A stretch of DNA of 63,118 nucleotides, counting the filler, from Asterionella formosa (taxonomy: Eukaryota): NCBI GenBank assembly GCA_002256025.1. It is 13 parts of 13 records of this genome, joined end to end, with 100 filler letters (N's around TTAATTAATTAA, not from the genome) between each part and the next. Parts side by side here need not be neighbours in the genome. Positions count along the whole stretch, not along the records: positions 20,696 to 37,781 come from NKIB01004564.1; 12 more parts are not named here. One strand, 5' to 3'. This document shows, one piece after another, positions 16,299 to 37,100 of this stretch (the stretch's first letter is position 1; each line of letters begins with the position of its first letter). A program made the position numbers and the translations under genes. The notes beneath the pieces are model-generated. The model worked only from the letters and a program-made list of their open reading frames with translations, did no database searches and was not told the origin of the DNA.

Positions 16299-16299
<1 letters not shown>

Positions 16300-16350
<51 letters not shown>

Positions 16351-16395
16351 CGGGGGGGGGGGGGGGGCGGGGGCGGGNNNNNNNNNNCCCCCCCC
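16300..16395. other. Poly-G run next to a 10-N gap, likely sequencing artefact
   Basis: Near-pure G tract at a scaffold break, typical of two-colour Illumina signal loss. Confidence 0.75.
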
Positions 16396-17014
16396 CACAG
16401 TCATAAAATGAAGCTTGATAGATGAGAGCCATAACCAACTTGTTGATGGTGCATCACATCAACGAATCCCAGTGCGACAGCGAATAATTTGACCCCAAAG
16501 TTCATCATCCCGCCTCCAGGGTTGTCATCGTCGTCTTTGGTATTCATCATTGTTCCATTTCTATTCACTCTTGAACAAATGGACCAAAGTACCTGCCCTT
16601 CCTCTGGATTGATACTTGCAATGGTAAATACATTGATATCAACAGGTGCTAGAACATGGTTGGAATGGTTTGCACAACATAAAGGAAGATTCCTCGGACT
16701 GTACAAATGTGGTTCACATCGTAGCTACTATGATCATTCAAATACTTGGAGTCACATTGAAACTATCATTATTTCTCACAAAAATGTAATTACAAATACT
16801 TGGCGTTCGGCGAAACAACGGTAGCCAGCAGTGCAGCTCTCCGGTATCTCTCTAGAGTTTCTGACTAGAAAGTGTGTCACAGGAAGTCGAACTATGCACT
16901 ATCATACTACTTTTACATCCAGGATGCTTGAGTACGGTGGATACAACTATTGTTTCTGGTAGCTGCGTTTGTGCAGACCATTGAATTATCGAAAAAATAT
17001 TTAAGCTGTATCCG

Positions 17015-19429
17015 TTAGAACTTTGCAGCTGGTCTTGGAGCCTTAACGCGCTTTGAGAGAGGTTGAATCATCTTCCCAGCCCGTGTTATGATCTCAGGAC
17101 GAGTCATGTTCTTAACGGCACTAGTCACATTCCATTCCTTTCCCACAGCGCCCGTCATGGCCCGCTCATACTCTTGGCGGCTTGTGTAAGGATAAGGAAT
17201 ATTGGCAATCTGAAAGCTACCGGCAGTTTTTTTGATACGCTTCTCATTGATGATGACAAGCGGTTTCTTATCGTCGGCTCGCTTTCGCTTGGGAAGCGCA
17301 TTTTCGGGGGCTTGCAACTTTTTAGGAATCTTACGGGGAGGTTTTGAAGGGGGAGCGCCCGCTCCGGCCCAAGAGCCCCACCCATTGGACGTCTTGGGTA
17401 CATCCTTCTTTGTGCGTGTTGGGTCGTCACGGTCCATTGCTTCGGCCTTTTCCTTCGCGAAGTCCTCTTCGACTTCTGTATCAGTGGGGGCTGAAAATGC
17501 ACGGCGAACAAGTTCTTCCTGTGTCAGGGAAGCAATGTTGGTAGAATTCGTGGATGGTTTTCCTTTCGTTGCTTTGTTGTGCGCTTCCATGGGCAAATTG
17601 TCCGTGAACAAATCGACCGCGCCGACAACATCAACGACTCCTTTTTTATTGAAACCCGATGTTTTGCGTTTCTTCTTATTTCTAGGTTCTGTAATAGCTG
17701 TATTGGAATCGTTCGTTGCTGCCAACCATGGGTTAGACTCGTCTTCGTTCATTTTCGTCATGGCAGAAGTGGATGACGATGCATTCTTTTTTACAGGATT
17801 TGTATGGTCTTCATCAGTTGCCTTTAAGAAAATCTTCTCGGTATCTGTGGCTTGCACACTCACTTCAAAAGTACTTGTATGCGGTCTGGTCCTAGAACTC
17901 AGCTCTACATCACCATTTTCACTGTTGCGACCGCTACCCAAATCAATGTTGATGCCGCCACTTACAGAGATTGAATTGGAGTTTCCAAAATCCAAGGAAG
18001 TTGCCACCAGCTTGCCGTCGCCCAAGATATGCTTGATTTCTTCAGCCGATGAAGCCTTTTTCGCCCTCTTCGGTTTCTGCTCCACTTCACTTTGCTCGTC
18101 CGCACCGGCGTGTTGCGCATTTGCTTCTAGTTCTTGCAGGAGTATTCTCGCTTCTTCCTTAGCCTGCTGTCTCTGCTTTTCCACACCCTTTTGCATGAAG
18201 GACAAAGCAAAAAGTCCCTTGCTTTGCTTGGCAGAAATTGCTTCGCCTTCCGTCTCTTGTAGAATCCTTTTTGCTGTCTCCACCAAATCTTCATTTTCAT
18301 CGCCATCATCATCGCTGTCACCAGTGCCATTCATTTTATTTCTTAAATCCTCGCCCCTTTTCAACTGCGCTGACAAAGCCCGCCTCGTATCTTGGTCGAC
18401 ATGCTTGCCACGTTTCAAAATACGCTTTGCCCATTTGGATGTATTTTTGTGCGCCAACGATGCTCGCTCCCGCATGCGGTCCAATTCTTCCTTTTCGTCC
18501 AATTCTTGTTGTAGAGTTGGATCATCTTGAATATTGGCCTCCAATTCACCATCCTTGGCACGTTCCCTTTGCTTCTTACGGATACGCCGGTACTTTTTTG
18601 ACTTGATTTTATTCATGTGATGACGTTTTTGTTCGTGGTAAAACATTAGGGCTCGTAATTTGGCCAACTCCCCCCGACGTTCTTTGTAGGCCTCCATGGT
18701 AATTTCATTATTCCCCAAGTCATCCATCATTTGTTGTTCTGCCTTGAGCATACTTGCTTCATCTTGCTGACCAGCTTGTGTCAATGCTTCAGCTAATTCC
18801 TTTTCAAAGTCAGTCGTTGGTTTAAACTTCCCAACTAGGGCATGCTTGGAAAGTACATTGATGCCTCGTGGACGAAAATCAAGTGTTTCCGCCTGTCGAT
18901 TCTCTTGTACGGCATCAATCCATTGTGTGACTTGTTCCGTCGAGTCTTCGTAGTGCACTTTTCGTTGGGCCCGATCTGAGACGATCCTGGCAACAGGGGT
19001 GGAGGTTGTCCTTCCCTTGGATAATTTGTCCATGGTGGATTGCATCTTACCAAAGCCATGTGTATCTTGTAGACCATTCATGAGAGCGTCCATGGTGAGC
19101 GTCGATGTAACGACGGAGGAAGAGTATTCTGATTCTTTCAGGTGTGACGCCAGAGCATGAGGTGTCTCGGCAGTGGTAGCGCTGTCAAGTTTATTTAATA
19201 AATCCAACATGTACTGTCCTCCATCTCCTTCTTCACTACTGTCATCGGATGATGCAATGTCATCAGAGTCTTCCTCACTCTCCTCGCCTCGTCCTTCCTT
19301 GTTGCTATTCTTGCTCGAGAAGAAGGAGCCATATCGGCGCTCATCTTCGGAATTGAAGGCCTCATCTTCATCAATTTCTTCGTCATCGTCACTATCCACG
19401 TGCTCGACTATGCGAGGTCGTTGCTGCTG
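17015..19429 (-). CDS. UTP14: U3 snoRNA-associated protein 14 (SSU processome), 5'-partial
   Basis: VQENRQAETLDF, ELAKLRALMFYHEQKRHHMNKIKSKKYRRI, ERASLAHKNTSKWAK, GWGSWAG, VIINEK, PYPYTSRQEYER..GKEWN and ITRAGKMIQP. Confidence 0.96.
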   Translation of the reverse strand, partial: QQQRPRIVEHVDSDDDEEIDEDEAFNSEDERRYGSFFSSKNSNKEGRGEESEEDSDDIASSDDSSEEGDGGQYMLDLLNKLDSATTAETPHALASHLKESEYSSSVVTSTLTMDALMNGLQDTHGFGKMQSTMDKLSKGRTTSTPVARIVSDRAQRKVHYEDSTEQVTQWIDAVQENRQAETLDFRPRGINVLSKHALVGKFKPTTDFEKELAEALTQAGQQDEASMLKAEQQMMDDLGNNEITMEAYKERRGELAKLRALMFYHEQKRHHMNKIKSKKYRRIRKKQRERAKDGELEANIQDDPTLQQELDEKEELDRMRERASLAHKNTSKWAKRILKRGKHVDQDTRRALSAQLKRGEDLRNKMNGTGDSDDDGDENEDLVETAKRILQETEGEAISAKQSKGLFALSFMQKGVEKQRQQAKEEARILLQELEANAQHAGADEQSEVEQKPKRAKKASSAEEIKHILGDGKLVATSLDFGNSNSISVSGGINIDLGSGRNSENGDVELSSRTRPHTSTFEVSVQATDTEKIFLKATDEDHTNPVKKNASSSTSAMTKMNEDESNPWLAATNDSNTAITEPRNKKKRKTSGFNKKGVVDVVGAVDLFTDNLPMEAHNKATKGKPSTNSTNIASLTQEELVRRAFSAPTDTEVEEDFAKEKAEAMDRDDPTRTKKDVPKTSNGWGSWAGAGAPPSKPPRKIPKKLQAPENALPKRKRADDKKPLVIINEKRIKKTAGSFQIANIPYPYTSRQEYERAMTGAVGKEWNVTSAVKNMTRPEIITRAGKMIQPLSKRVKAPRPAAKF

Positions 19430-19529: not shown

Positions 19530-20595
19530 ACATTCCTCCAATGATGTTGTGCAAGAGTATGGATTTGCAGCACTTGTGAAAACAATTCCTCTAGAGAATG
19601 TTGTTGCACCACCTACTGTATCACTACCAACTCTCTCTGGTGAAGTTGTGCGAATATGATCCATTGTATTAATTGTCATTGTTCCTAAGCAAGTAGATTC
19701 GCCATTTGAAACGGAGTCTAATTCAAAACCTGTGAAAATTGTATCTCTGGTTAGAATAGCTTGTTGCATATTACCGTTAATAGTACCACCATAATATACG
19801 TTTCTTGTAAGCGTACCTAATGAAGGATATAATGGACGAGCAGTAAAGAACGATCTTGAATTTCTATAAATAGTTATTGCAGTAGCAGGAGAAGCTAAAC
19901 CTACTGTTAAATTTCCATTAGGATTTACACTTCCTTCAACTAAATAAATTGCATTTCTAACAACAACGGCAGAGTTATAAGTAGTACCTGCAGAGTTTTG
20001 GTGATAAATTTGAGGAATCATACCACCAGTATATGTACCAGCTCCAGAAACTGTTGAAGCAGCACCTCCCGTAAACAATAAAGTTGTAGTAGTTGCTCCA
20101 TTTACTGTAACAGTACCTTCATTTGTCAAGTTACCACCTAAATAAGTCCATCTTGCTACGGTAGTAACTGTTCCTGTATTTGAAGTATATGTAGCACCCG
20201 TATTAACAGTCATGTTTCCAAATGCTTGTAATACTTGAGAAACTGAACTTGAGTAAAATCTTAATGTACCATTAACAGTTACATCTTGAGTACGTGCAAT
20301 ATTAACATCTATATCAACGGTGTGACCAACATCGATAACAACGTGGTTATTTGCATTTGGAACGATACCACCAACCCAAGTTGCAGGATTACTCCATAAA
20401 CCTGTGCCAGCAGAAGTAATAGTTGTTGGAGTGAATTCTTCAACACTAAAACTATCAATAAATAAGTTAGCTGAAAAACTGTATGCAGCATTTCTAACTA
20501 ATCCAAATTTTGCAGTGCTTACTTTATAAGCAGCAGGTACCTTAACATTAAAGCTTGACCATGCAGTAGCAGAGGTCATTGTTCCTGCAGCTGCA
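19530..20595 (-). CDS. Fragment of a large bacterial-type secreted beta-rich protein with a G8-like motif; likely contaminant contig
   Basis: Frame open across the whole contig; ITSAGTGLWSNPATWVGGIVPNANNHVVIDVGHTVDID motif typical of Bacteroidota T9SS-exported proteins; T/G/N-rich with strongly A/T-ending codons, unlike host genes. Confidence 0.75.
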
Positions 20596-21569
20596 NNNNN
20601 NNNNNNNNNNNNNNNNNNNNNNNNNNNNNNNNNNNNNNNTTAATTAATTAANNNNNNNNNNNNNNNNNNNNNNNNNNNNNNNNNNNNNNNNNNNNCTTAC
20701 TAGCGATCTTGCACATTCAGAACAATACTAAACGAGCCACATGCAGCCGTTTGTACCGGTTTACTAGTACCGGTGGTATACATTGTTAGCGTTGCCCACG
20801 TGTAAATCTGTGTAGGGACCTACCGGTAGTTCGACTCAGTCGAAAAATGTAGCAACTCGCTTGGTGGGGCTATTGGTTTGATCGGCCAGGTTCCGAAAGA
20901 CTGTAGATACGACACATACATAGGACATATAAAGAACTCCTTTCTGCGCGCAGCAAGAAACTCGACCAAGAAAAGGAAGCAACAAGACAGCAGTAACCAA
21001 CGTTACGGTACCCCTGGTACCAGGTACCAGGTACCTGTTCAAGATCCTATGACATAGAATGAATCACAATCCGTTTGTCGGTGTCTATGTGTTGCTTTCC
21101 CAATTTTTATCTTCAGTCGTGCCTGTGCATCTGGGAAGGATTCTTCTCCTCCTTTCTCCATGTCGTTCATTCAATATAATGCATACACTGTATGTATAAT
21201 GCATCGATAAATGAGGGTTCGTTCGACAAATTCATGGAGCTCGACGCTCTTGATACAAGTCACAACTCCTGCTCGGCTCGATAGCACCAGTAACTAAATT
21301 GTGACGTCTGACTGACTACCGGTACCTGGTACCAACTGGTACCGGCACTTTGTTTTTCAAGTAAACCGCGCTTTTCCCAAACAGGGTTGAAAACGAGAAA
21401 ACTATTCGTAAATTGAACTGCCCATTGGCATTTGCACCACAATTGCACCACTATTACTTACAAAAACCAAAATTGCACCATCAGACTACGGTACTAATAT
21501 ATCAAATCCGTACTGCCTGCACTACGGTAGTGATATTTGCTATGTAGGATCACGATCAGATTCATATAC

Positions 21570-22480
21570 TAAGATATGCATAACGTAACCAATGGCCGTT
21601 GCCTATTGTACCCGGCACATACATATAATGGTCCATTCATCACTTACTCTTACCGCTACTAATAAAATCCTGCAAGTATTTCAAAAGATACAGATTAACA
21701 AGGCCATCATGTTTTGTATTACAATGCTCAAAAGAATACGAAGATTACTTGCCTCAAACGGAGGATAGCAAACCAAAGCAATTATAAAATTTCAAAATGA
21801 CTCTGTGCTGACGTCATATCGTCGCTGCACCACATTGCACCACCATAGAGACCTACGGGTAGCAGTAAAAAACTGCTGTGCTTGACCCACTAAAAAAATG
21901 TGAAACCGGGACCCCTGAACTATAATTGTTTGTTGAATCCTGAAAAGCAGCTGACGAAATTTGGTGTTGTCCCTATTGAATAGAATCCCACACAACAACT
22001 GCACATCTATTACACCTGACCAGCTCAACTTGCGAGATAGACTTTCAGGAACCCTTGCAAATCAAATGATTGAATATATACTTAACAGAGAAGCTGTGCG
22101 AAAATTGGTAATGATGCAGCAGAACATGCCAGGAAAAGAAAGCGAACATCACAAGCAGCAATCGACACACACAAACAAATGACTGCAGCACTGCACTTTG
22201 CTGTTGGAAACACCTGTCTAGCTACTAGCTAAGTCCACTGCTTGCCGGAAATCAAACGCCGGCAAGAAATCCAGGAACAAAACAAGGAGCAGAAATCGAA
22301 TCGACGGTCTTTTGAATTTTCACAGAAGGTACAGGCCATCAGAGACACTGGAAAGGAAGTTGGAAGGAACAACATAGCTTAATTGAAAACAATGGTGACA
22401 AGGTACTACTAGCATGATGGCCATGTGCCACTTCCAACAACCAGACAGACCAAGATACTTGGAGTCTTTTTGCCATGGAG
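21570..22480 (+). mobile_element. Degenerate pogo/Tc5-like (DDE_1-type) transposase C-terminal relic
   Basis: Broken frames read GPLNYNCLLNPE, DQLNLRDRLSGTLANQMIEY, ARKRKRTSQAAIDTHKQMTAALHFAVG, KVQAIRDTGK and LKTMV..PLPTT, resembling diatom DDE transposase tails; many stops and frameshifts. Confidence 0.5.
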
Positions 22481-23025
22481 AAAGGGATTCTTCATATCCA
22501 CCAATTCAACCTCGTTGTGTTGTGCTTGTGGGAGGGCAGGAGCTTAGGGATGATGACGATGGTGTGGTGGTGTTGATGGGCACAAGCATTTAATGTGGAT
22601 AAATTCATTTGTGTGTGATTTTGATAAATATGTATAAAATTTTAACTTCACTTAAAATAAGCGCTTTAAGAGTACTCATTTGCTAGAAGGGTAGACCACT
22701 TAGCGCTTCCTGGCGCTGCCAGCACTGATGTTGATGTTTGCAACTGAATGTTTTGTTTAATGATTTCCTGTTACAGATATAAATATTTACCTATGGAGCA
22801 CTTCATGTGCAGATAGGGGTTTTGTTCTGCATATCCCTACTTGGAACATGTAGGTAGTGGAAGCCTCTTAATTAAAGGATGCAAATTAGTTTAGCTTGTC
22901 CATCTTTTTCTATAGTAATAGTAGAAACATTGAGACCCCCATCCTTGCATAGCTCAGTTGGAATCGTTGTTGTTTACATAATAATGGCAATCAAATCATT
23001 ACCTCTACCATGTTGTTGGTTACAC

Positions 23026-23487
23026 CAGATGATAGACTATTATATGGTAACTAAATTTTTAAGTACGCGTTATTGAGCCTCGACTAAAGTGTGGAGTTCG
23101 TTGGGTCGCACTGGGGCGCAAAGCGCTCGGTTCGATTAGATGGACTTAGACAGGTGAAGAGGGACGGCGAGGGGTCGCGCGACGGATAAGAAATTTTCGG
23201 ATTGTGCCCTGGCGGCGTTTGTCTTGACGTATTTGGGATGTGAGGCGTAGTTGACCCGCACGATAGATTGCCAGCCAGGCCGTCAGTGCCGACGGGGAAT
23301 GAAGTAAGCATTGAGAGAGAGGAAGGCCAAATATATGTCCTTGTTCATCAGCTGGGACGGAGATCTGGTTTGAGTAAGCTGTAGTTGTCTGTGTTCGAAG
23401 CAATGTGATTCGGCGTGCATTAGTGGCAAGGAGAGTGGCGCCATAGACAAAATCATTGCGATTATTCAGATGATAGACTATTATATG
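23026..23487 (-). mobile_element. 5'-truncated non-LTR retrotransposon (LINE, Ambal-like) 3' end bounded by a 21-bp direct repeat
   Basis: CpG-rich island; minus ORF RNDFVYG..R.TLLR....AY....IFGLPLSQCL..SPSALTAWL resembles diatom LINE ORF2 C-termini; exact repeat CAGATGATAGACTATTATATG at 23026-23046 and 23467-23487. Confidence 0.6.
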
Positions 23488-23738
23488 CAACTAAATGTAT
23501 TTTTATTCAAACACAGTGCTCACCACCAGGCATGACTACCTGAATATACCTCTTATATACATGCACATGTCTGCAACACCAGAACCAAAAGAAAAAGATG
23601 TAATGATACTCACCAAGCACTGGTAAATCCATTCCATACAAACAAACAATTGCCACTCAGAGGAATATTTGCAAAATCGAATTTTAAAGCAGAGAGTAAC
23701 CTGGACCACCTGATATTCTCATGACAGTACAGAGATTC

Positions 23739-26700
23739 CTACATTGCCCTGGATTTGCGAACTAGCTTTCTAAGTTCACTTGCAGGAACCAAATAGCATC
23801 GATGCCCTTCCCCTTTATCAGCTCTGCTAAGAATTCCAATAACCTTACCTTCTCCATCGATACACGGTCCACCACTTTGTCCACTCAAGGTTTTGCAATC
23901 TACAATTATCTCCTTCAGAGGCGAAAAGGTCTTGATTGAAATTGACGAGGCGGAGTCGCTATTCTCATCATCACCTCGTGCAGGGACCTGAAACATTTTG
24001 CAAATATAACCTTTGGCAAAGTCAACCGAGAGATTTACATGTTTGCCTTTCTCCAACAAACCTTGGTTAAACCCCACAATGTGCACCGATTCATCGGACT
24101 CAAACTTTGTTGTCATTCGAAGCTTTTGCAATTCAAGAAGACCTGAGACCGGAAGCTCGGACTGAGATGCGAACCCTTCACCATCACCAATCATATCCTG
24201 CTCCATGCGAGCTGTGATACGTAATACACATGCATCGACATTCTGAACATTTTCACTCACAATTTCGGCAAAGTATCGAAACACAGCAGTTTCACTTCCA
24301 TCTGGAATGACACCAATAATTGCTTTACAATGCTTTAATCCAAAGTAAGGAATCCCACTATTGGAATAATCCAAATTAAAAAAAACATGCCTAGCAGTAA
24401 CGATAAGACCAAGCGATTGGTCAGCGACAAATCCGGAGCCAATGCTCGTGATAATCTTTTCTTGGGAGTCCCAGAGACCGACAAGAACAACACAGCACTT
24501 GACTTTCTTGCGAACATCAGGTGAGAGGAATGGTGGGGAAGGTTTGACCATCAAAGGGCATATTTCATGACCACATAATAAGTTGGTATCCACGGAATGC
24601 CCCTTGGCACATCGTATAGCTGAATCACCCCAATTAGCAGATGATTTGACATCCTTCCAGCTCCAAGACGAGGCGCAGCTGGGATGCAAGTGGGCGAGAC
24701 ATTCGGGACAGACTACATGCCGATCAAAACCATTGGAGTCTGCCAATGATGCCTTGATAGAATCCAACACCAGCTCGTATCCACCTTTCCAGAGCTTTTG
24801 CCCATGACGGCCAACTTGTCCCTTGCCACAGACAATGAGTCGCTTCATGCCGTTTCTCATACTCTTGATGTCAACACAATGGTTTGAATGTTCATCCACC
24901 ATAGCCACATAAATTTCAGCAGACGATTGTTCACAATTTTCACTGTTAGCAAAGGCCATCCTACATTTTACGAGTACAGCGGACGCCCAACAATTGACTT
25001 GAACAACCTTGATGTGACCAATCGCATGATCGGATCCAACGTGAACCGTTTGATACAGATCTTTGAGTAGCTTTATAGTTGCATGCTCCATAATGGCTGT
25101 CGCAATTCCATCTTGGAACAACCATGAATGGCACAGAGTCGTCATCCAAGCATTCCTTGTCTTGAAACACCATAAATCACTGAGTTCTTTCTGTTCCAAT
25201 AAGGAAGGAACAAAGTATGTGGGTTCAGCTGCCACCTTCAACGGCAAAAGGATACCAAAATGCAATAGCAGCCGTTCCAAAAATTCATACAATGTATTTG
25301 ATGCATTTTGATCCGCAACTTTTCTCATGAATTCCCAGGATTGCCACAACATTGCGGGACCCCCGGCAGACAAGATTGGGCAATTCGAGTTGGTTTGATT
25401 TAGGAGCGTCTGAACACTATCAGATTCGACGCAAAATTCACAGTGTAGGTTCATGAGACGTCTAGTTTTTACCAGTTCTCGTTGCAAGTCAGGGCGCAAG
25501 ATGCAAGAGAGCGCCGAAACTAGCCATTTCGGAGACAAAATAATATACTGAGATAAAATGTCATCGATGGAATTGCCGAAGTATAGAATCTCCCCTGTAC
25601 TGGAAAGAAATCGAAGGGCATCGATAACTGCTTCCTCATTCATCGTACGTTCGTTCATTTCTGAAATCAAATGAACTAACAGAATAACCTTATGACCTTG
25701 TTTTAGCCGTCGAATTGTCTCAAGGGTTTGCCTAGAAACTTCAGGCCAAACATGCGAATTTACTCTCTTTCGCCCAATGTCCAGGATTTTTTCTTGTAAC
25801 TTCGGGAATCTCTTTCCGGATACTGAATAAATCTTAAGGATGGGAAAATGAATTGGCGCCTGGTCCCCAATAAACACTGGGTGCTTCTTCAACAGGTTTT
25901 GCAACATTTCACACCGTCGGTCTACTTCCAATTTATCCATACCTGAATTCACATAAGCGACCGGCAAGATGGCGCTTCCAGAGGGAATGATGTGGTCCAA
26001 CCATGAGAGCACGCGATCTTGAATGTCATGGTGCAATGCTCGATCCGCTTGTCGCTGGTATTCTTCGCTGAGAAACTCGTTGTCATTCTCCTCGTCGTCA
26101 TCGTCTTCCATGTCCTCTCGTTTTGAGACCCCTAGATCCCAAACAAGAATGTAAAGCGAGTTAGCACTGAAAAAGAGGCCCTGAGTTGATGGATGGGCAC
26201 CAGCATACAAACTTCTGACATCCCAAATAGTAAAGGTAAAATTCTCGTCCACCTTTTCGTGTTGCTTCTCATGTTGTTTCATGTGTTGATTCTCGTGCTG
26301 ATTATCTTCCGCCTCCTTGCCTGGCTTCCATGTGTATATTTTGACAACCAATGAGCCCTTTGGTCGCCATGTTTCAAGCTTCGAGCCCATTGGTCGCAAT
26401 GTTTTACGCTTCGGTTCCATGCCTACTATTGCGCGGGCCAATTGCGACTTTTCCTTTCCGGTCCCTACCATGATAACCTTGAATTGAAACCCCTCCTCTT
26501 CAATCGGAATGGCATCGACTACAGGTACGTTTTGATTTTGCGATGGTACAGGATAAGTTTGCTGCAGCTGTTGTTCGCCCCATATGCGTTCACCGAGCGC
26601 TATGGGGAGGTTAGATGCATGATTGTCATCGTCGTTGTCAGCGTAGACAATTTCTGCAGCTGTGACAGGAGACGGCAGATACAATGGTTGTTGTGGATCT

Positions 26701-26912
26701 CCGCTATCAAGGCCTTCGTTTAAATCTATTTCGGTTCCAATTGACGATAAGGAAGTGTCAATAGTGATGGTTGAATTGATGCCATTGTCGTGTTCAGCAT
26801 TGAGAGGACCTTCCAGGGCGTCATGAAGGGGTGGAAGCAATTGCTGTGGTGGTTCGTTCCATCCCCTCTCGGTAGAGGGCACTGTTATGGAAGGAGGGCA
26901 AGAAGATACCAT
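23739..26912 (-). CDS. Roco-like protein: degenerate Roc GTPase + COR domain + C-terminal trypsin-like serine protease, intronless (~1057 aa)
   Basis: Roc-like KVIMVG..., FTIWDV, HPSTQGLFFSANSLYILVWDL; COR-like ALRFLSSTGEILYF, IILSPKWLVSALSCIL, YFVPSLL; CPECL..C..GH; protease GSGFV, VTARHV, VDACVLRI, GQSGGP. First ATG at 26912 (track starts at a non-ATG codon, 27044). Confidence 0.85.
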   Translation of the reverse strand: MVSSCPPSITVPSTERGWNEPPQQLLPPLHDALEGPLNAEHDNGINSTITIDTSLSSIGTEIDLNEGLDSGDPQQPLYLPSPVTAAEIVYADNDDDNHASNLPIALGERIWGEQQLQQTYPVPSQNQNVPVVDAIPIEEEGFQFKVIMVGTGKEKSQLARAIVGMEPKRKTLRPMGSKLETWRPKGSLVVKIYTWKPGKEAEDNQHENQHMKQHEKQHEKVDENFTFTIWDVRSLYAGAHPSTQGLFFSANSLYILVWDLGVSKREDMEDDDDEENDNEFLSEEYQRQADRALHHDIQDRVLSWLDHIIPSGSAILPVAYVNSGMDKLEVDRRCEMLQNLLKKHPVFIGDQAPIHFPILKIYSVSGKRFPKLQEKILDIGRKRVNSHVWPEVSRQTLETIRRLKQGHKVILLVHLISEMNERTMNEEAVIDALRFLSSTGEILYFGNSIDDILSQYIILSPKWLVSALSCILRPDLQRELVKTRRLMNLHCEFCVESDSVQTLLNQTNSNCPILSAGGPAMLWQSWEFMRKVADQNASNTLYEFLERLLLHFGILLPLKVAAEPTYFVPSLLEQKELSDLWCFKTRNAWMTTLCHSWLFQDGIATAIMEHATIKLLKDLYQTVHVGSDHAIGHIKVVQVNCWASAVLVKCRMAFANSENCEQSSAEIYVAMVDEHSNHCVDIKSMRNGMKRLIVCGKGQVGRHGQKLWKGGYELVLDSIKASLADSNGFDRHVVCPECLAHLHPSCASSWSWKDVKSSANWGDSAIRCAKGHSVDTNLLCGHEICPLMVKPSPPFLSPDVRKKVKCCVVLVGLWDSQEKIITSIGSGFVADQSLGLIVTARHVFFNLDYSNSGIPYFGLKHCKAIIGVIPDGSETAVFRYFAEIVSENVQNVDACVLRITARMEQDMIGDGEGFASQSELPVSGLLELQKLRMTTKFESDESVHIVGFNQGLLEKGKHVNLSVDFAKGYICKMFQVPARGDDENSDSASSISIKTFSPLKEIIVDCKTLSGQSGGPCIDGEGKVIGILSRADKGEGHRCYLVPASELRKLVRKSRAM

Positions 26913-27121
26913 GGAAGCTTTACAGTGCTCTTTTGAAAAGAATACGCCAGGGATGGAGGACAGATAGTGGTGTGTATTGTTGTTTTGGTTCTTGAAAAAA
27001 CATGAAAAGAGGTCTTTGCTTCTGACCGATATGCCTCTTTTCACATCTCCTATAATAATGAAGGAATAAATATATACCGGTATACAGTAGTCTAAGTAGT
27101 AAGTATTACCGTAAACCTCTT

Positions 27122-27244
27122 AATATCTCCACGTACTTTTCGGGTTTTGTGGAGCACGCTTTATTTAGTCATGTAATAAAACCGGTCGTGGAGATATTGT
27201 GAAACCCTAACCCTAATCCGCCCAAATTTGGGGATAGGGTTTCA
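27122..27244. repeat. Two adjacent inverted repeats upstream of the Roco-like gene
   Basis: AATATCTCCACG (27122-27133) pairs perfectly with CGTGGAGATATT (27187-27198); TGAAACCCTA (27200-27209) pairs with TAGGGTTTCA (27235-27244). Confidence 0.7.
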
Positions 27245-28479
27245 TGACGTCATCGGACACCAAAATAAATAGCAAAAGACTCCATCCATATAAAAAATTT
27301 AGTATAGATACTGGTCCACATGTTATACATACATGAAACCATGTAAAATATTTGACAGTGGTGACAACTAAGAGTAATGCAATGTAGTTAATGAGTGAGC
27401 CAGACATGTTAATGAGTGAGAGCATCCCGGCTATAGTGAGCTAAAATTGAGTTGCATTTCAGTCTTACCGGATACTTCGACATTTACGTAGGTCAGATAT
27501 GAACAGGCTACATCCAATATATTCCACACACGAGTGTACCACAGGACGGAATCCAGAATCCGTTCGTATGCCATATTTCATGTCGAAATCAACAGAACGA
27601 CATCACAAATAAAATTTATTATTTATTGTTTCTATCATATAAATCATATATATAGTATGTTCAAGGAGCATGGTGATATCGTACATTACCTGTAACCTGG
27701 TAACCAGGTACCAGGTGTATGTATACCAGGGGCAACTCAGCACGAAGTACTAGGCGATAGAATACGAAAATTATCACGTGACTATGACACAAAGCTGAGC
27801 AAATGATGCTTTAGTTGAAACACATAGAGATTCCTGATTCCTGATCAGGTTATGAGAGTGTCAATATATTTTCGTCTCTAGTGATCTGATTAGGAACATG
27901 TACCACAATCCACTAGATGATTGATTCAAGATCACATGGTTAAATATCGCGTGTAAAATGCCACAGTTGAGAGAGGAACTTTCAGGAGAAGTTCTCTCTA
28001 ACCTGTTAATTGGACTCTAGAAGACAATCAGACCTAGAGGCCAAATCAATAAATGATTGACTAGACAATTACAGATATGTCTGCAACATCAAGGAACATT
28101 AAAGAAGCAAACTAGATATGATCTAGTTATGATTAACAGGATCATTCTGTAAGCAGTCTTCGATCAAACAGTATCTGGCCTAAGTTGAGACAGGCCAAGA
28201 TTAAGACAAATGTGTATTTAGGAAGAGGATGTTGTTTATTCTCAGTTCAAGTTGGGAACACAAATGAACCTCGCCTCCGAAGATCACCTCTATTTTGAAA
28301 CATGCATGAGCTTGGAAGTTTCAAAATTATACATTCAAATTTACATTTACATTAAGCTCACTCTTTTATAAAAACAATTATTAACAACAACAGATACGTA
28401 GCATCTTCCAACTTACTCTGTAGAGTACCGGTAGTACCAGATGACTACATACTGATTTTTGTGCATAGAATCCTTGTTG

Positions 28480-31400
28480 CCATTCCGACTTGATCACTTG
28501 CATTGATGCATTTAATGTACAGGTACTCCTCTCTCCTCTTTCCATTCTCATATCGGAAATCGAAAATTTTACCTTTTGACTAAGTCATGTGCGCTCGTCG
28601 AGTCCCTCACGAGCTGCCTTCATTGCTTTCCTTAGCCACAAATCTGGATCGACTTAACAAGCATGGAAGTGCAAATTGTCACGTAATACAGAAGCCAGGT
28701 GTGCCAAAAAGGCGGCACTGGCAGACTTCAGACCAAAAAGAGCATGGACAATCTTTAGCACACAACCTTGCTTTCAGCGGGCCAAATTCGTCTCCTGCCA
28801 CAACATAAGAGCTCCCTGTCACAGACTCCGTCAAATAAGCATTCCCAATGTCTGTTAGCCATAGGTTCAAGCCATTTAAACCGGCAACGAACAGGGCAAT
28901 CCAAATTGTCTCCCTTGAAACAACACTTGCATACATAATTGCCTTTGGGGGGTCAGTCGTATGACCCCCTGCCACATACCTAGTAGCCTTGGGCATGAAG
29001 TCTATCTTGTAATCCCAAACTAAATGTCCTGGAGTCTTTTTGTATCCAGCAACAAGGGTTTTCTTTTCTGACTGAACTTCGAAAGCTATCATCACTGCAG
29101 ACTTGCATCTCCTTGCGGAGTGCATGCATTCAAAATGTATTACCTTTTTCATTGTCCAACCTTGCTGCATCGGGAATGTTACTTGGAATCTGAACCTCAA
29201 ATTTGAAGCCAGCTTGGTGGTTTCTACTCTTTGTTGCCTTGATGATTCGTTTCTTGAGTTTTAAGACCATTGTAACCCACCAATCAAAAGCAGGCTCGAT
29301 TTTGACTCGGTTTGCTTTGGCATAGTCTATTCAGCAACTTCAATTGCATTTGGTTCCTTCATAGTCTTTAATGGGAGCCAGGATGTAGACCTGTCCCTCC
29401 ATTGGACTTCTAGATCTCAACCAGTTGTTGTCTTCTTCTTATAATGTTTATCATTCCTCTTGAACTATTGATCACTCTTTTCCACAGCCTGGTTCACGAT
29501 TTCAGTGAAGAGTTGGTACTGATTACCCTCCTTGTCTACCTGACTGAGAAGATGCTCTGCCAAGATATTGTATGCGATTTGCTGTCTTTCACCATCTAAG
29601 AATTCGACCTGCCTCATAAACCCTGAAATCTAACCTCGGAAACCTGTGCTTTCGCCAAACCAGGTTCCTGTTCGCATCCCGCTTTCGTTTCATGACCACC
29701 GCAATCATTTCTCCTTTATCCTAATCTCAAATTCCTTCATTTCATCTCAGCATTGAATATTTCACATAATCAGCATCAACAATTGGCCTCACATTTGATC
29801 GAGCAATGTTCCGTCCATTTGCCTTAAGTATGCAATAACATAAAGCTTGCCCAACACTTGTGGAGGGGCCAACAAGCCATCTCCCAAGTTTCCGCTGGGC
29901 CAGGCCACTCTTTTCCATATCATCTGGATCATAATAAAATACAAACTGATAGAAATCTAAATCCGTTTACTCCAAAATGTCAGAAGTCTCGTCTGTCATC
30001 ACTTTTTATGGAGATCGGCCATCAAGTGCAGATCTAAACATGATTTTACAGATGTCGGAGGTATCTTCTGCTCCAAAGCACCATAGCATCATGTCTAGAC
30101 AAATTCAGTATATATTCATGATATGACGCCAATGAGTCTTGAATTGTCCAACTTCACTCTCAGCTCTGATCATCCAGAGACTGTGGGGCTCTGTTGTAGT
30201 GCAAGGAATTGAGTAGGTCTTCCAGACTCTCTCAAAATCTGTGAAGTCCCCCGTTTCTGCAGCTGCGTTGTCTAAGTGGTACCTAGTTCCGGAATACGAC
30301 CATATTGCAGGATGATGGCATCATTAAATCTTTTCATCATTGAATCTATTCTTAAAATCTGCCTTGGAGCGCGTTGGATACACCTTGGCCCAACACTGAT
30401 CATTGCAGAAAGTTCTGCACATATGTGTCCCTTCACCAACTTCACCTTGTCCTTGGGAAACATGGTATCAGTATACCACTTAAGCCCAAAGGTGCGAAGC
30501 CGGCGGGAAAACTCTTCCATTTGTGAGCAAAATCTTACTGCTGTTGTTGTAGATGCCTGTAGGGTACTCGCTGCAGTTGCCAAACTTTTCCCCCATCGTT
30601 GGGCCAGTGTGGCTGCATCCACAGTTGAGCGTAGATCTGTGCTGGAAGTGGCTCCAACCCAGTGCACGATGTCCCCATATGTGCTAAGAAAATCCCCAGT
30701 TGTATCTCCACAAACAACATTATCTTAACAAACCCTCTTGAGGTCAGCAAAGGACTGCGAATAGGGGTCCCATGCTGACTCGGAAGTAAATGTGACGTGC
30801 CATCAGTTGATTAGTTCATCGTCGGTAGGGAGGCGAGTAGTGAGATAGGTGATGCATTCATGCATCTTGAACGGGAGGAAAAGAACTTTCTCAGGGACAT
30901 AAATTACATGCATAGACTTTCCTTGGGAATATTGCTTGGGACAGGTGTCGACTACAATACCATATGCTCGACACTGTTAGCTAGGTTTGAGGAGGGAATC
31001 GTCTAAACACTTACCAAAGTAAAGGCCTTTGTTCCAGAAACCAATGATGGTTTCCTGTACCCCTGGTAGATCAATCGCTGTTGCACACATACCAGCCAAT
31101 TGGGACATCCAAGAATTATCCCAGATCCCCAGAGAGGACCAAAACATCCACCACACGATCACTCTGTTTAAGTAGGCGGAATGTCCTTCCGAAGCGAGCA
31201 ATATGTGTCGGCTCTGGAATCCACTTCCAGATGAGCTGTGACTTTATATTCACTAGGATGTTGTATGACTAGTGCCTTTCCAAACTTGTAGCTCACTTTA
31301 CAGTTAGTCACAACTCCGGCAAGCTCCCTATGGGTGCTGCTCATTGAGCTGACTTTTTGCTTTGTGGTTTCTTGGAATGCCTATTCCAAGAGTCACGACC

Positions 31401-31650
31401 AAATGATGCGGAAGCAGCATCACTTGGCATGTGGCTGGGACCTTCTGTCGCATCATCTTCAGAATCGGCTTGCTTGTCATCGTGTCCTTCACTTGATACC
31501 AATTTAACAACACAGTCTTCCTCTTTATTTCCACCTCTACCTAAGTAACTCACATATTTGCTCCCAAGTTTCCCTCCAGCTTTCTTCTCTGCCTCAATTA
31601 CATTATTTGATGTAATTGTTCTCGCCTTGATGTTTCTTATCGCCATTCTC
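28480..31650 (-). mobile_element. Pseudogenised Ty1/copia (diatom CoDi-type) LTR retrotransposon polyprotein
   Basis: RT: GHLVWDYKIDF..K..YVAGGHTTDPP..YASVVSRETI..A.LNGL...TDIGNAYL; integrase: KWYTDTMF, TTEPHS.W..RAESEV, LGRWL.GP..VGQALCY; linker EVQWRD.STSWLPLK. Numerous stops and frameshifts; LTRs not identified. Confidence 0.88.
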
Positions 31651-32399
31651 CTACCCTATGTCTGAATCTTTCCTCTTTAATGCCTTGTACTTGATTTTAG
31701 TTTCTTGATTTGCCGACTTGTATAGTGCTACCGGTCCCCTACAATTTTTGCACAAAAGTCTCGGGAAACGCACAATGAGTTAGTCCTCGGAATTCGGGAC
31801 TACCCTTTTTGACTAAATATGTAGCAAATCAATATTCATTTTTATCAATGATAGATTATTTTCGTAACTAAGTTTTAAATGACTCTTTTCGATTATGAAA
31901 TGGAGATCGAAAAATATAAACATTTTTCGTACTACAGTCTATCATTTCAAGAATTCGGATGCATAATGATGTACTGACGTTTTCGACATGGAACAAGTCA
32001 TGCAGCAGGCATTAAGACGTCGTGATACAATACCGATAGTCTTCATACAACAAGCATTAAGACGTCGCAACAGCCACAATAGTATACAACTTATACTATT
32101 ACTGGTGTACAGTGTACATCAGAGTACCCTCTACCTTATTCAATCATGAGTGCCTCCCGAACCCCCAACACGTTGTCTGCTCGGAATGAAGATGAAGACC
32201 TTTCTCTGGAGACGAGTGATCTTGTTTCCGTATTGAAGGGTAGTTATTCTGACGAAGTTGGCAAAGGCCAAAGCGTTGGTCAGTGTGTATTACAGGGTCT
32301 CCAATAAATCTGTTCTTGACCATGCCCAGAAGCCTTCTAAAATCAAGAAAATCGTCCCATGGGACAATTCATGTCTGCTACCTGATTTTTTGAGTCGAT

Positions 32400-32590
32400 T
32401 TTGGTCCCGAAAATATTTCAGTGGCCAGCTGATGTAAAACAGCATTAGGCGATATCCACATGTTCAGAATTAATAGATGAATGTTAAATTGGTTTCGAAT
32501 AGTTTAATTAGATGCTAATAAATCAATTACAGAATCAGAGTATCTGTTCACGACTGTAACTAATAACAAATGCATTTTTTCGCGTAAGCC
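32400..32590 (-). repeat. Dispersed AT-rich repeat, copy B (homologous to 1168-1360)
   Basis: Colinear similarity by eye with the start of contig 2. Confidence 0.7.
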
Positions 32591-32969
32591 GACCCTCACG
32601 TAGAGAGTTGGTATGTTTGCTACGTAATTCTTTTTATGCGAACAGCAAAGACACTAGTGGTTCTGGCGATTTGACGCAATCGTTTTCGCCCAGAGGGAGT
32701 ACAATATAATTTATTGAAATGCAAGCAATCTTTGTCTCATGGTTGCTTCCAAAACAAATGCTACAGCAATGAGGATCAGATAATTTATTGAAATTCAAGT
32801 TATCTCTTGTCTTGTAGTTGATTTCGAAAAAAATCAAACAGCGAAAAGGAGAAATCATGGAATCTTCAGCAGTAGTATCAGTATTTTGCACAACTGGAAT
32901 TGATTGCTGTTGAGAAGCACAAGACCCAGAAAGGGCAATGGAGTTACATGAATGGGGACTTGTTGATTG

Positions 32970-33640
32970 AGTCATGAAGCATTCCTGAAGGGATTGTTGA
33001 CATTTATTATGGCTATGACATGGCACAGAAGAATGTGCATGGTCAAAATGAGAATGAGTAGGTTGTGTAGAGCCAGCGTCCACAGGTATGTGGCGAGCCG
33101 TAGAGACTCAACTGTGGGGGGCAGCATTGAATCGCTCGTCAAGAGACATATGGTGGTATGAATTACAGCATTGGCGACCACATGTCGTGATATGTTCATA
33201 ACGAGGGTCAGATTGTATGCTGATTGTTGTAGGCTATGGTAGGAATTGACGTGTAGTAGGATTAGTAGGAGCCACTGAGGGGACATTAGCTGCTACAATA
33301 GGTTCCTGAATGGTTTGTCAACGGATATGATGTTGATGTCTAGGATGACCAATAGAAGGAGACATGAAGCAAATGTTTCTGAAGGGAGTGTTGTTGATGA
33401 TGGCTATGCTATTCAGAAAGTGCAGAAACATAACCAATAGGAGAATGGGTAGGTTGTGAAGGAGACATGAAAAATTCCTGAATGGTTTGTCGATGCTGGG
33501 GATGATGTTGATGTCTAACATGACAATGGAGACATGAAATTTTTCTGAAGGGAGTGTTGTTGATGGCTATGATATTTCACAATAGAATGTGCATGGTCAA
33601 GACGAGAATGAGTAGGCTTTGATGTTCCTGAATAGTTTTT
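32970..33640. repeat. Degenerate tandem repeat array
   Basis: Recurrent CATGAA..TTYCTGAAGGGA.TGTTG..ATGGCTATG..GAATGTGCATGGTCAA..GAGAATGAGTAGG blocks near 32972, 33362 and 33531, alternating with TTCCTGAATGGTTTGTC..GATGTTGATGTCTA blocks near 33303 and 33475. Confidence 0.7.
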
Positions 33641-33824
33641 CGATGGGGGGGGGGGAGATGAAATGTGCGTTATAGGGGAACGTGCGTGGTCAAAATGAGC
33701 TGGATCTGGAGAGATGTTTAAGGAAGTACTTTTCCAATTTTTAGAACTTGCTTGATTGACATTGTAGTTGAAGTAGGTAGATCAACTACTAGTACGGTGA
33801 TGGGAGATCACACTGGGTTTTGAC

Positions 33825-34165
33825 GGTAGTTGTTGGTTGAGCACGTTGCCTTTGATCTGAGGTTGTGAGGTTCGATTCCCGCAATTTTTTTGAGAAGCAA
33901 TTGTTGGGTTCGACTTCCACACTCCTTACCGTCCCGCATGGTCTTGCCTGTTGTGCAAGAAATAGTGGGTTGTCCCCCTACAATCAGCTTGTGCCGCGTC
34001 GGATTTTCCCCTAACGCTGCGGCTAAGACAATCATCTTTCGTGAAGGCTGGTTGGGGACTCACCTACGCTAACAAACTAGGGAAGCACAGGTCTTGTTGG
34101 CAGGCAGCACAATGAATACTTGCCTTGAAAAAGGAGAATAGGAATGGGATATAAAACAGATTATC
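33825..34165 (+). mobile_element. tRNA-headed SINE-like element, copy 1
   Basis: B box GGTTCGATTCC at 33869-33879, second B-like box at 33907-33918; ~340 bp colinear with the reverse complement of 50275-50638. Confidence 0.75.
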
Positions 34166-37100
34166 AATATAAAATTTAATTGACATTTATCTGGTATTTA
34201 TATTAGCACCAGCAGGTATGGAGGTATAGAAGTTCTATCAGGTAGCTACTGTATCTGCTGTTGTGATTATCAATTGCGTTATCCCAGAAAAGATATGATA
34301 TGAGTACACCATTCCGATTTTTTGCATGGAAATAAATGCCATGAAATCACTTTTTTCTTTCTCCAGATATCTAGTTTGCCGTTCCATGGATCAGGAGCCC
34401 TAATGTTCTTATTATTAAAAAAAGTCGGAGTTGGATTGGACAGTATCACCCGCCTTCTTAAGCATGAGTTCCAATTGTGGTAAGGTGAATTCGGAGGAGG
34501 AGACATTTTCATAACTCACTACCATCTGACGCTCGCGGATCCAATCGCTAAATGCATACTATGCCATGATAGTTTACCTGCTGATACTAGCTTTGTAGCT
34601 GGTGTAAAGCATGACAGGACGGTATAGTCATCCAAGGGTCTTAGGCTTGTAGCTGTATCAATATCTTCCTCAATCAGGCGCTTTGCCTGTTGTTGTGTCA
34701 ACTATCGTATACCAGTGAGTGTTGCTTGAAAAGCTTCATGTTCAGGAGGGTATCCATACTGCTCCAGTTCATCAATCGCCAGCATGATGGTGAGGTCCAG
34801 TATAGGAGGCTGAGTGAATTTTCGAGGTTGATTCCTTCAATGAAGGTGCCAGGCGTCCGAATTCTCCTTTTGTTAACGACATTGAGTGTTGATAAGAGTA
34901 CCAATCGGTGCGTTCAAGCCTTGATGTAGTATATGACTCTATCGTCACAAAAATAATGTCTGATGCCATTGTTGTGAGTACACCTTTCAGGTGATTGGAA
35001 AACGGATGATACAAACAAACAGGAGGTCCACAATGTCGAATCAAGTAAACAAGAGCATGGGTTTGATAAACGATGTAAATCTCGAATTGTAACAATAGAT
35101 GTTATAATCGAGCACCCGAAAAGACGATTTAGAAAACAAACGATAAAAAAGAGAGCATAAAAGTAATAATTGTGAAGTAAAATAAAACACAATCTGTTCA
35201 TCAGTATTTGCCAGTATCCATTGAATTACATGTATACTATATATATATAAATAATGAAGGTATACATGTTATAAATGTATAACCAAAAGACTGCTCATAA
35301 CGGCTCATGGTATCACTTGTCAAGAATTTAACAAATCCTCGGCCTTTACATCTGTTGATGGTATCCCACCATAATTTGCCCAAGTCATTCCTCTACTTGA
35401 GCAGTAAATGATGCTAAGTCGACTCATCTTTTTATCGTGTGATTGTATGATCTTGTTCTCAAAGGTATAGGCAGATCATTACTACCGAAGTCAATTCCAA
35501 ACATATAGCAAATGATCAACCTAAAAAATGACAGCTGGTCTATATCAAGTTGAAGGTCCTGTCAAATCCCATCAACTTCTTGTGATCTAAAGGGTATCCA
35601 AAATCATCGTCTACCCTAATGAGGAAGTTTCTTGATGTTGTATGGTTGTGGCCATCAGCAGCTAAATAACAGCCAACAAAACGTGATATTCACAGCAACT
35701 TTGGTTGTGAGGTGAATTGTTGAGGGAATCATCACCAAATCTATAAAAACAGTCTGTACACTCAATAAACTTTGGCATGATAATGCTAGGCATGCCAGAG
35801 CAACAATCACATCATGAAGGCTGGAGCAACAGTGTAAGTTGGATGTTATTGGACAAACAATCAAGTCATTGGTATCAATTCTTTGCTGGCTGGTCTACAG
35901 TTTTGAACACAGTTTGCCACAGCTCACCTTTGTCATTGCTAGGTACGGTTGTGCTCATTTGTATGAAGCGACGATTCCTTATCATAGCAATCCACCGAAG
36001 TCCATGCTGTCTCGTCAATCTCTGAAATACTAGCTATTACGCAGCAAAATTGTAAGTGAACTTTGGGTTGTAGCTAGTATGCTGTGACAGTTGCATGTTG
36101 GTAATGCGACCACCACTCTAACATCTCATTGCATGTATGCATGAAAATGTTCGTTTGATTATCTAGTCATCTGATTTATTCTGTTTACCATCCATGCCTA
36201 GTATAGAGTCATACTTCTTTGTTTTCATCGCCAATTCAAGCCCAATTGATTGCCAGATATCATCAATTAACCACCCTGTTTTTATTGCTAGAAAAATCCC
36301 TTCGAATGTGTTTGTCTATTAATTACCGACTTTTTTCAAGTTTTTAAACTCTGGCGCATTTTGATTGTTGAATTGACTAAAGCTTTCTGGATTCTCTATC
36401 ACAATGTCATGCAAATTTGTCACTGAGGGTCCACCATTTGTTACAAGCTGATAAGCAGGTCAGGTTGTTAAAAATTCATACAAATAACATGATTCATTGA
36501 TAGATTTAAGAGATAATTGAACTCACTCCATAAGCCTATCATTGAGGCTTCATGAGCAATGCAAGGAGTGCATGAAGCTAAACTCACAATGTGCAAGCTT
36601 ATTCAAACTAGCTAGCAGTATGGATAAATCAACTACTAAAGACTTAAGACTACAATGTTAACATCGAAACTATGATTTAAAATTTTTGATGCTAATGAAT
36701 TGAACAAGGGAATTAATTTGTTTCAAGCAGCCAACCGTAGAATCATGCCATTGTTCAATGTTGTCAACAATTTTCGACAGAACAAGTAGTACTGACATTT
36801 CTAATAGCTAGCTATTAAATATTCATGAATCATTTCATCTACATTCTATGATTTCGTTGAGGTTGAATGAAGTGATGGTGAGTCGTAATTGATTGTGTGC
36901 ATCAAACATAAGGACAATAACTTTGTCCCCCTGCAACATATTATTTTAGGAACAAGTAGTCTTTACAAAAAACCTTCCACTTCTACAATCTAGAACAGCC
37001 TCCAGAGTCTACTTTATCCAGACTCATTGCAAGAGCTGTTGACAGTACTATTACCCTATAAAAAGTTTGACGGTGCCTCAGTCTGCAGGTGTAAGTTGAA

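Follow-up and report, generated by a model that had tools for sequence, protein, structure and literature searches.

A transcribed Roco-type gene of the diatom Asterionella formosa with degenerate GTPase motifs and a C-terminal serine protease domain

Roco proteins have been studied mainly through LRRK2, where it is an open question to what extent the Roc-COR region acts as a GTP switch and to what extent as a scaffold. The same question is raised by a gene found in a 63,118-nt stretch of DNA from the diatom Asterionella formosa (assembly GCA_002256025.1), hereafter called the window. On contig NKIB01004564.1, one long open reading frame (ORF) encodes a protein, P0001, in which a Roc-like domain with degenerate GTPase motifs and a COR region are followed by a Cys/His module and a protease of the trypsin fold. 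What could Roc-COR be doing in such a protein? The answer that we favor, and to which we give a probability of about 0.6, is that the locus is a transcribed, unspliced diatom gene of the 'ROCO with C-terminal peptidase' kind, whose pseudo-GTPase Roc-COR would serve as a nucleotide-independent scaffold for the protease.

The window consists of 13 unrelated contigs joined by linkers of the form N44-TTAATTAATTAA-N44, and genes on different contigs are not neighbours. Three contigs measure 17,074-17,095 bp and ten measure 1065-1069 bp; the gene lies on the contig at 20696-37781 (17,086 bp), where its 1057 codons form the sole ORF longer than 193 codons. The stop-to-stop frame extends to 27119, with no ATG upstream of the one assigned, and a tblastn search found one copy of the gene within the window. 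The frame is not a chance one, since a word-indexed search returned 70 relatives and an exhaustive search 411 representatives at E<=1e-3, 194 of them at E<=1e-30. The single intronless ORF announced in a preliminary description of this DNA has been borne out by the ATG-to-stop frame and by RNA contigs of four runs, which show no joint inside the gene.

Transcription of the locus is supported by public sequencing runs. Twelve of the 14 runs listed hold the sequence or part of the gene, and 11 of these are recorded as RNA. Four of them (X1, X2, X6 and X7) were mapped on positions 21000-30000; being contigs, these data give neither strand nor exact ends nor level. PolyA contigs from three studies, comprising metatranscriptome and transcriptome data, cover 23081-27035 from end to end, differ from it at 0-7 sites and show no joint, while none of the four runs has a contig in the flanks at 21903-22504 and 28826-30000. 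Since cover is confined to the gene in polyA libraries of three studies, these data argue for an unspliced mRNA of about 3.9 kb, made of the ORF, a 3' untranslated region of approximately 660 nt and a 5' untranslated region of approximately 20-120 nt. Elsewhere on the contig, high-depth RNA contigs match short pieces of 21000-21600 (around 21013-21035, 21315-21334 and 21416-21451), with long loose ends and, in one case, a joint with 12 other letters; these matches seem to stem from a repeated or shared element and not from the gene.

The domain order of P0001 (Table 1) was established by Pfam, by a family profile and by structure prediction, which agree with one another and with the architecture first proposed, i.e., a Roc-like pseudo-GTPase, COR, a Cys/His cluster and, at the end, a protease of the trypsin fold whose triad is complete. 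Pfam detects Trypsin_2 at residues 825-1027 (45.3 bits, cut-off 27.6) and COR-A at residues 396-572 (40.7 bits, cut-off 35.3). At E<=1, the same scan found no Roc, LRR (leucine-rich repeat), ankyrin, kinase or PDZ family, in line with the earlier statement that sensor repeats and a kinase are lacking. Roc, undetected by Pfam in P0001, scores above the Pfam cut-off in 4/12 and 8/11 relatives of two scanned sets, and it is recovered in P0001 through its family: a profile of 57 members matches LRRK2 Roc-COR at 4.9e-19, LRRK1 at 2e-16, the Roco proteins of C. tepidum and M. barkeri at 1e-10 to 1e-12, and HtrA1 and HtrA2 at about 1e-7 to 1e-8.

The family alignment was used to build an AlphaFold2 model, which has a mean predicted local distance difference test score (pLDDT) of 79.4 and a predicted template modelling score (pTM) of 0.80, with 561 residues at pLDDT >=90. 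The model was compared with known structures using Foldseek and VIA-align. Residues 132-572 superpose on the RocCOR of MbRoco2 (4wnr) with a Z of 24.6 and a root-mean-square deviation (rmsd) of 3.4 A over 307 aligned residues, residues 137-786 match LRRK2 (8fo9_A; Z 24.5) and residues 135-786 match LRRK1 (Z 23.3). The protease domain, residues 795-1057, matches DegP, DegQ, DegS, Deg1 and HtrA1 with Z of 21-23.6 and rmsd of 2.1-2.9 A over 180-193 aligned residues. For the C-terminal half, residues 575-1057, a two-copy model scored 0.00; it was built without the family alignment, the fold of the chain itself was uncertain in it, and the score weighs on neither side of the question of dimerisation. 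In a crude hydropathy scan, no 19-residue window reached a Kyte-Doolittle value of 1.6 and the hydrophilic N-terminus showed no signal-like segment, which suggests a soluble, intracellular protein. With a Roc fold and a COR directly C-terminal of it, P0001 is a Roco protein by descent and fold, while standing outside the switch chemistry of the family.

Table 1. Features of the gene and its contig, with positions in the window and the evidence for each
Feature	Position	Strand	Evidence
Transcribed span, approximate	23081..27035	-	RNA contigs
Complete ORF (protein P0001, 1057 aa)	23739..26912	-	1057 codons + TAG stop
Disordered N-terminus, residues 1-139	26496..26912	-	pLDDT <50 at residues 1-6 and 8-138
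Roc-fold domain with degenerate GTPase motifs, residues 140-389	25746..26495	-	Structural alignment and family profile
P-loop remnant VGTGKEKS, residues 149-156	26445..26468	-	Aligned to LRRK2 'GNTGSGKT' via family profile
In-frame 30-nt tandem duplication, KRKTLRPMGS / KLETWRPKGS, switch-I region of Roc	26352..26414	-	Tandem Repeats Finder (TRF): period 30, 2.0 copies, 87% matches
In-frame 12-nt repeat, 3.9 copies (NQHENQHMKQHEKQHE), ahead of G3 strand	26256..26303	-	TRF
G3 remnant WDVRS, residues 230-234, DxxG lost	26211..26225	-	Motif comparison
COR-A, residues 390-574	25191..25745	-	Pfam COR-A at 396-572 and structural match
COR-B, residues 575-727, approximate boundaries	24732..25190	-	LRRK2/LRRK1 structural alignments reaching model residues 786-789; secondary structure
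Cys/His module then linker, residues 728-794	24531..24731	-	C735, C738, C768, H772
HtrA/DegP-like serine protease domain, residues 795-1057	23742..24530	-	Pfam Trypsin_2, fold, triad H842/D893/S1013
Copia-type reverse transcriptase-like relic ORF, 193 codons (context only)	28682..29260	-	Atlas language-model features, score 0.96

The departure from switch chemistry can be followed motif by motif. Where functional G1, G3 and G4 motifs read GxxxxGK[ST], DxxG and [NT]KxD, P0001 reads GTGKEKS, DVRS and AYVNS, all three aligned through the family profile to the LRRK2 motifs (GTHLD in the case of G4). The Gly-to-Ser span of its P-loop counts seven residues against the eight expected, and Glu replaces the second Gly. 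The 30-nt duplication in the switch-I region is an insertion relative to the closest relative, P0002, and the model falls below pLDDT 50 at residues 175-183. These degenerate motifs lie where the preliminary description had placed them, as do the Cys/His cluster and the catalytic triad. Scoring of P-loop integrity, advised at that stage for diatom genomes, revealed a graded loss across the 57 aligned members: the loop is canonical in 8, keeps the eight-residue spacing without the canonical Gly pair in 31, is one residue short in 5 (P0001, P0007, P0014, P0047 and P0074) and takes other forms in 13. Similarly, G3 reads WDFAGQ in the canonical clade and WDVQG in a middle clade, and DxxG is missing in 12/12 members of the well-supported clade that holds P0001. 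At G4, 'ILPVA..' is found family-wide instead of NKxD, with a trailing Asp confined to the canonical clade. Judged from this alignment, motif degeneracy is mostly a family-level trait and not damage private to P0001. Because the second P-loop Gly is acidic, the loop short, the G3 Gly and G4 Asp lost and switch I duplicated, the Roc domain has probably ceased to bind or hydrolyse GTP in the canonical manner and to act as a switch.

In the C-terminal part of the protein, the catalytic triad is intact. The triad motifs TARHV (H842, nt 24387-24389), NVDACV (D893) and LSGQSGGP (S1013, nt 23874-23876) hold residues that are invariant in 57/57 family members, and alignment to Deg5 and DegQ sets the His and Ser motifs against the catalytic motifs of these proteases. 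The surroundings of D893, 'RYFAEIV..N..NVDACVLRI', resemble the DegQ strand pair 'YKAKLIGKDPKTDLAVIKI'. A chymotrypsin fold with His, Asp and Ser in canonical order is thus present (Trypsin_2 at 45.3 bits, Z about 23), the equivalence of D893 being the likely but indirect part of this assignment. When residues 827-915 were searched against PDB sequences with phmmer, only a chance match to an inositol monophosphatase was returned. No PDZ domain was found in P0001, which ends at residue 1057 right after the protease, nor in the 23 relatives scanned. The preceding Cys/His cluster, CPEC at 735-738 and CAKGH at 768-772, is as constant as the triad, with C735, C738, C768 and H772 invariant in 57/57 members; it is presumed to be a zinc knuckle, and an Atlas search with residues 725-800 gave no usable family or fold match for it. 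The protease is probably active, and it would be the only catalytic output of the protein.

All named members of the family are diatoms: Seminavis robusta, Nitzschia sp., Cylindrotheca fusiformis, Grammatophora oceanica, Fistulifera solaris (two homeologues), Odontella aurita, Leptocylindrus danicus, Pseudo-nitzschia multistriata, P. pungens and P. multiseries. Family sequences also occur in transcriptomes from cultures that had received no challenge (mmetsp and eukprot sources). At least two old types of paralogue are present in diatoms. Proteins of type A, of 1700-2100 aa, have the order LRR-Roc-COR-protease and canonical GxxxxGK[ST], DxxGQ and [ST]xxD motifs, exemplified by GMAMVGKT at G1, WDFAGQ at G3 and a G4-like [ST][FY]xD; LRR families were found in 6/6 members of the main canonical clade against 0/17 of the other homologues scanned. 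Type B proteins are without LRR and have instead a disordered N-terminus of 300-600 aa, with a P-loop of the form GxxxxD/EKS. P0001 belongs to a well-supported type-B clade of 12, which is in addition without the G3 glycine and without the G4 aspartate. The N-termini of P0002 to P0006 share short, strongly conserved motifs (LLREW, YPxATFVxNxVR, DDEYVLIDGDLVAIP and NRMRRSMRGFRKWMKKRQGK), all missing from the window's copy, and an acidic-Tyr-x-x-Ile stretch in type-B N-termini has what we take to be a resemblance to an Atg8-interaction motif. The earlier suggestion of a retroposed family is not supported, intronlessness being a trait of the family: a Nitzschia gene model of 4755 nt encodes 1584 aa, and an uninterrupted ORF is therefore normal here.

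Within type B, P0001 is a divergent member. Its closest relative is P0002 (67% identity over 86% of P0001), to which it is sister with a support of 100, on an end branch of 0.33 against 0.063. With P0003 as outgroup, unique residues number 158 in P0001 and 31 in P0002 (chi-square 85), an outcome with which five more outgroups agree. By domain, the counts for P0001 and P0002 are 35:6 in Roc, 32:3 in COR-A, 29:8 in COR-B, 24:6 in the protease and 2:1 in the Cys/His module, which is the only domain without an excess. The claim of fast evolution therefore stands for P0001 itself. Beyond the losses of its clade, P0001 has the one-residue P-loop deletion, the two in-frame tandem duplications and a much shorter N-terminus; no part of the window encodes the first 360 residues of P0002, and what remains of the N-terminus is without the conserved linear motifs of the relatives. 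At the same time, the approximately 20 indels relative to P0002 are all in frame, the frame of 1057 codons stays open, and P0001 keeps 85 of the 88 columns that are at least 90% conserved among the other 56 sequences, the exceptions being D518G, R944H and N1019D.

The P0001 and P0002 types can be traced side by side. A 204-nt RNA contig at 24571-24774 (X1 and X6) differs from the gene at seven sites, of which five change to the P0002 residue and two are synonymous; since it carries P0002 residues, P0002-type transcripts are present in the same libraries. In total, 13 RNA differences fall inside the ORF, four synonymous and nine non-synonymous, numbers that are small and mix the two types. Two metagenome proteins of the P0002 cluster (P0214 and P0216, from JGI) are single-breakpoint mosaics with a P0002-type front and a window-type end: P0214 tracks P0001 from residue 914 at 52/52 informative positions, and P0216 changes over at P0001 residue 783 and then tracks it at 73/74. 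They are either natural recombinants or assembly chimeras, and in both cases they imply co-occurrence of the two types, with stretches of identical sequence in common. P0002-type DNA, needed for a ratio of non-synonymous to synonymous substitution rates (dN/dS) against the closest relative, was not found in metagenome contigs, where a first scan gave 10 pattern matches, none of them confirmed, and a second gave 12 loci (L001-L012) at 23-38% identity. P0001 would have diverged from a full-length P0002-type gene, as its paralogue, its allele or its orthologue in a sister species, and selection probably still keeps its frame open and its protease core intact.

The combination of Roc-COR with a C-terminal peptidase is already in print. 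A 2024 survey describes, in its accessible text, a brown-algal ROCO 'group 3' with a C-terminal peptidase (IPR009003) that nests with ROCOs of stramenopile-alveolate-rhizarian (SAR) lineages, some of which also bear a peptidase (PMC11378527). According to the same text, SAR species hold at most four ROCOs each, groups 3 and 4 are without LRR exon shuffling, and brown algae have LRR-ROC-COR as their sole ROCO structure (PMC11378527). These low-copy stramenopile proteins resemble P0001 in ending with a PA-clan peptidase that comes after Roc-COR, as far as a domain listing, likened by description, can tell; P0001 differs from the brown-algal ROCOs by its lack of LRRs and its degenerate G1, G3 and G4. 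The ROCOs of the survey are listed by the Roc profile PF08477, which misses P0001, and the text accessible from it contains no mention of 'P-loop' or 'GTP-binding' (PMC11378527). Diatom ROCOs are mentioned in passing in a 2012 Ectocarpus paper, as excerpted (PMC3341825). In bacteria, AP-GTPase-COR modules, in which a Ras-like GTPase is strictly followed by COR, can have trypsin-like proteases among their effectors, according to the excerpt of the report on them (PMC7159879). Those conflict systems are bacterial, nucleotide-dependent and placed in multi-gene loci (PMC7159879, same excerpt); neither this context nor this dependence is seen for P0001. Our literature search found no functional study of the diatom Roco-protease family and no description of its pseudo-GTPase branch; for diatom Roco-proteases and pseudo-GTPase Roc domains, only brown-algal ROCO, conflict-systems and LRRK2 papers turned up.

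The type-A paralogues (for example, P. multistriata VEU35608.1 and Odontella aurita A0A7S4J5Y0) are homologous to P0001 from Roc to the C-terminus at E 1e-112 or better, with the same Cys/His module and triad; type A adds LRRs and canonical motifs. LRRK2, LRRK1, C. tepidum Roco and M. barkeri Roco2 share the order Roc-COR-A-COR-B (profile 4.9e-19 to 1e-10, Z 21.7-24.6). Unlike them, P0001 has a serine protease as its output instead of a kinase or none, no LRR, ARM, ANK or WD40 repeats, degenerate GTPase motifs and an extra C2CH module after COR-B. HtrA, DegP and DegS (MEROPS S1C) have the same chymotrypsin fold with TxxHV and GxSGGP motifs, and some relatives of P0001 carry the source label 'S1-C subfamily serine protease'; in contrast to HtrA, P0001 is without PDZ, is apparently intracellular and has its His and Asp strands set apart by about 20 additional residues. 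P0001 therefore departs from each of its two parent families in one defining feature, the GTPase motifs of Roco proteins and the PDZ domain of HtrA proteases.

In the scaffold reading, Roc and COR together would form a nucleotide-independent platform which, by packing and possibly by oligomerisation, holds and gates the protease. The platform would presumably be gated by LRR and GTP in type A and by the disordered N-terminus in type B. As this region is largely gone in P0001, the latter may be a protease free of gating, may modulate the full-length form or may come from a gene that is being lost. Several points weigh against this reading. Lys155 and Ser156 of the P-loop are still present, and the loss of nucleotide binding is deduced from motifs. 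The catalytic role of D893 is likewise deduced, from invariance and motif context, and a pairwise alignment with DegQ put the Asp strand of HtrA one strand earlier, at a non-conserved Glu. Finally, a high substitution rate, many indels, lost N-terminal motifs and nine non-synonymous against four synonymous changes among the 13 RNA variants fit relaxed constraint as well as changed function.

Relaxed constraint taken to its end would make P0001 a decaying duplicate or allele, transcribed and open yet non-functional, with the P0002 type as the working gene. The approximately fivefold surplus of unique changes, spread over all large domains, is in keeping with this, and so are the loss of about 250 residues of conserved N-terminal motifs, the slippage-type tandem duplications within Roc and the variants just mentioned; so, too, are the P0002-type sequence in the same RNA libraries and the fusion of P0002-type fronts to P0001-type ends in P0214 and P0216. 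However, a frame of 3171 nt without a stop, indels that are all in frame, the retention of 85/88 family-conserved residues, including the triad, the oxyanion motif and the four Cys/His ligands, and a confidently predicted fold (561 residues at pLDDT >=90, pTM 0.80) speak against decay, and we hold this explanation to be unlikely. A Roc domain that still works as a non-canonical switch, with GTP, ATP or another nucleotide gating the protease, is a very improbable alternative. It could draw on the retained K155 and S156 of the P-loop and D231 of G3, and on the good predicted fold near the P-loop (pLDDT 90 at residues 141-160). Yet the second P-loop Gly is acidic across type B, the loop is one residue short in P0001, the G3 glycine and G4 aspartate are lost and switch I is broken by a 10-residue duplication; in Ras, moreover, changing the equivalent P-loop Gly (G15A) gives a nucleotide-free protein.

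The preliminary description had favored a defence or cell-death switch, in which COR dimerisation would pair and activate the proteases in the manner of proximity-activated caspases. A switch-like scaffold joined to a protease effector, the LRRs of the type-A paralogue (a typical sensor module), the fast evolution of P0001 and the transposon relic nearby are consistent with it, as are the trypsin-like effectors and COR-linked AP-GTPases of prokaryotic conflict systems in the excerpted report (PMC7159879). However, the immune-receptor idea finds little comfort in the accessible survey text, with its at most four ROCOs per SAR species and its peptidase-bearing brown-algal group without the LRR exon shuffling that had prompted this idea (PMC11378527). 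The family itself is ancient and diatom-wide (Leptocylindrus and Odontella to Pseudo-nitzschia, Nitzschia, Seminavis and Fistulifera), it is seen in culture transcriptomes without challenge, and no sensor domain of any kind is detected by Pfam in P0001. HtrA-type proteases, besides, are usually trimers gated by loop rearrangement and not dimers. A role of this sort is in our opinion quite doubtful, less credible than decay, and any link of P0001 to defence or cell death is speculation. An even bolder picture, for which we see only the slimmest chance, is that of a two-tier system with the GTP-competent type A, with its LRRs, as sensor and the pseudo-GTPase type B as nucleotide-independent executor or adaptor with a COR-released protease, P0001 acting as a decoy or modulator that co-assembles with the P0002-type protein.

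The surroundings of the gene have been described as a scaffold otherwise full of transposable-element relics. While the gene is indeed the only intact long frame, the second half of that description was hardly confirmed: none of the 82 other ORFs of at least 55 codons on contig 20696-37781 matched a transposon Pfam family at E<=0.01, and Pfam found no transposon relics among the larger ORFs of the scaffold. The ORF at 28682-29260 looks like a copia-type reverse transcriptase by its language-model features, with 26 of 30 Atlas feature matches in the RVT_2 set and no Pfam matches. At the far end of the gene's contig, an ORF at 37354-37779 (-) shows weak armadillo-repeat similarity, below cut-offs (ARM_ARMC5 8.9e-06, ARM_LRRK2 1.4e-05), and may be a second gene cut by the contig end. 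Elsewhere in the window, the contigs at 2335-19429 and 42549-59622 carry ordinary eukaryotic genes, encoding a WD40 protein, a glycosyl hydrolase 28, Utp14 (451.8 bits), an ornithine cyclodeaminase family protein, a cation-efflux transporter, an ArfGAP and a zf-C3H1 protein. Two 1-kb contigs hold transposon fragments at 40387-41280 (+) and 41385-41792 (+), one a retroviral-polymerase SH3-like domain (29.6 bits), the other a DDE_Tnp_4 endonuclease (30.2 bits). Another 1-kb contig, at 19530-20594 (-), has a lower G+C of 0.37 and a single frame of 355 codons with a G8-domain match (26.1 bits, cut-off 22.9).

Returning to the scaffold reading, diatoms offer a natural series that runs from a canonical LRR-Roc-COR-protease, through proteins with a crippled P-loop and without LRR, to P0001, in which none of the three GTPase motifs survives and the N-terminus is cut short. 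COR, the invariant Cys/His module and the protease triad are conserved along the whole series. If the protease is active, the series would allow nucleotide-independent functioning of Roc-COR to be tested directly, through an output that is easy to assay. To our knowledge, the cell-death machinery of diatoms is largely unknown; if the two-tier system were true, it would be a protease-based counterpart, in diatoms, of sensor/helper pairs of nucleotide-binding leucine-rich repeat (NLR) proteins or of the apoptosome. Apart from such possibilities, diatom biology gains a member of a conserved and expressed protease family that is predicted to be intracellular.

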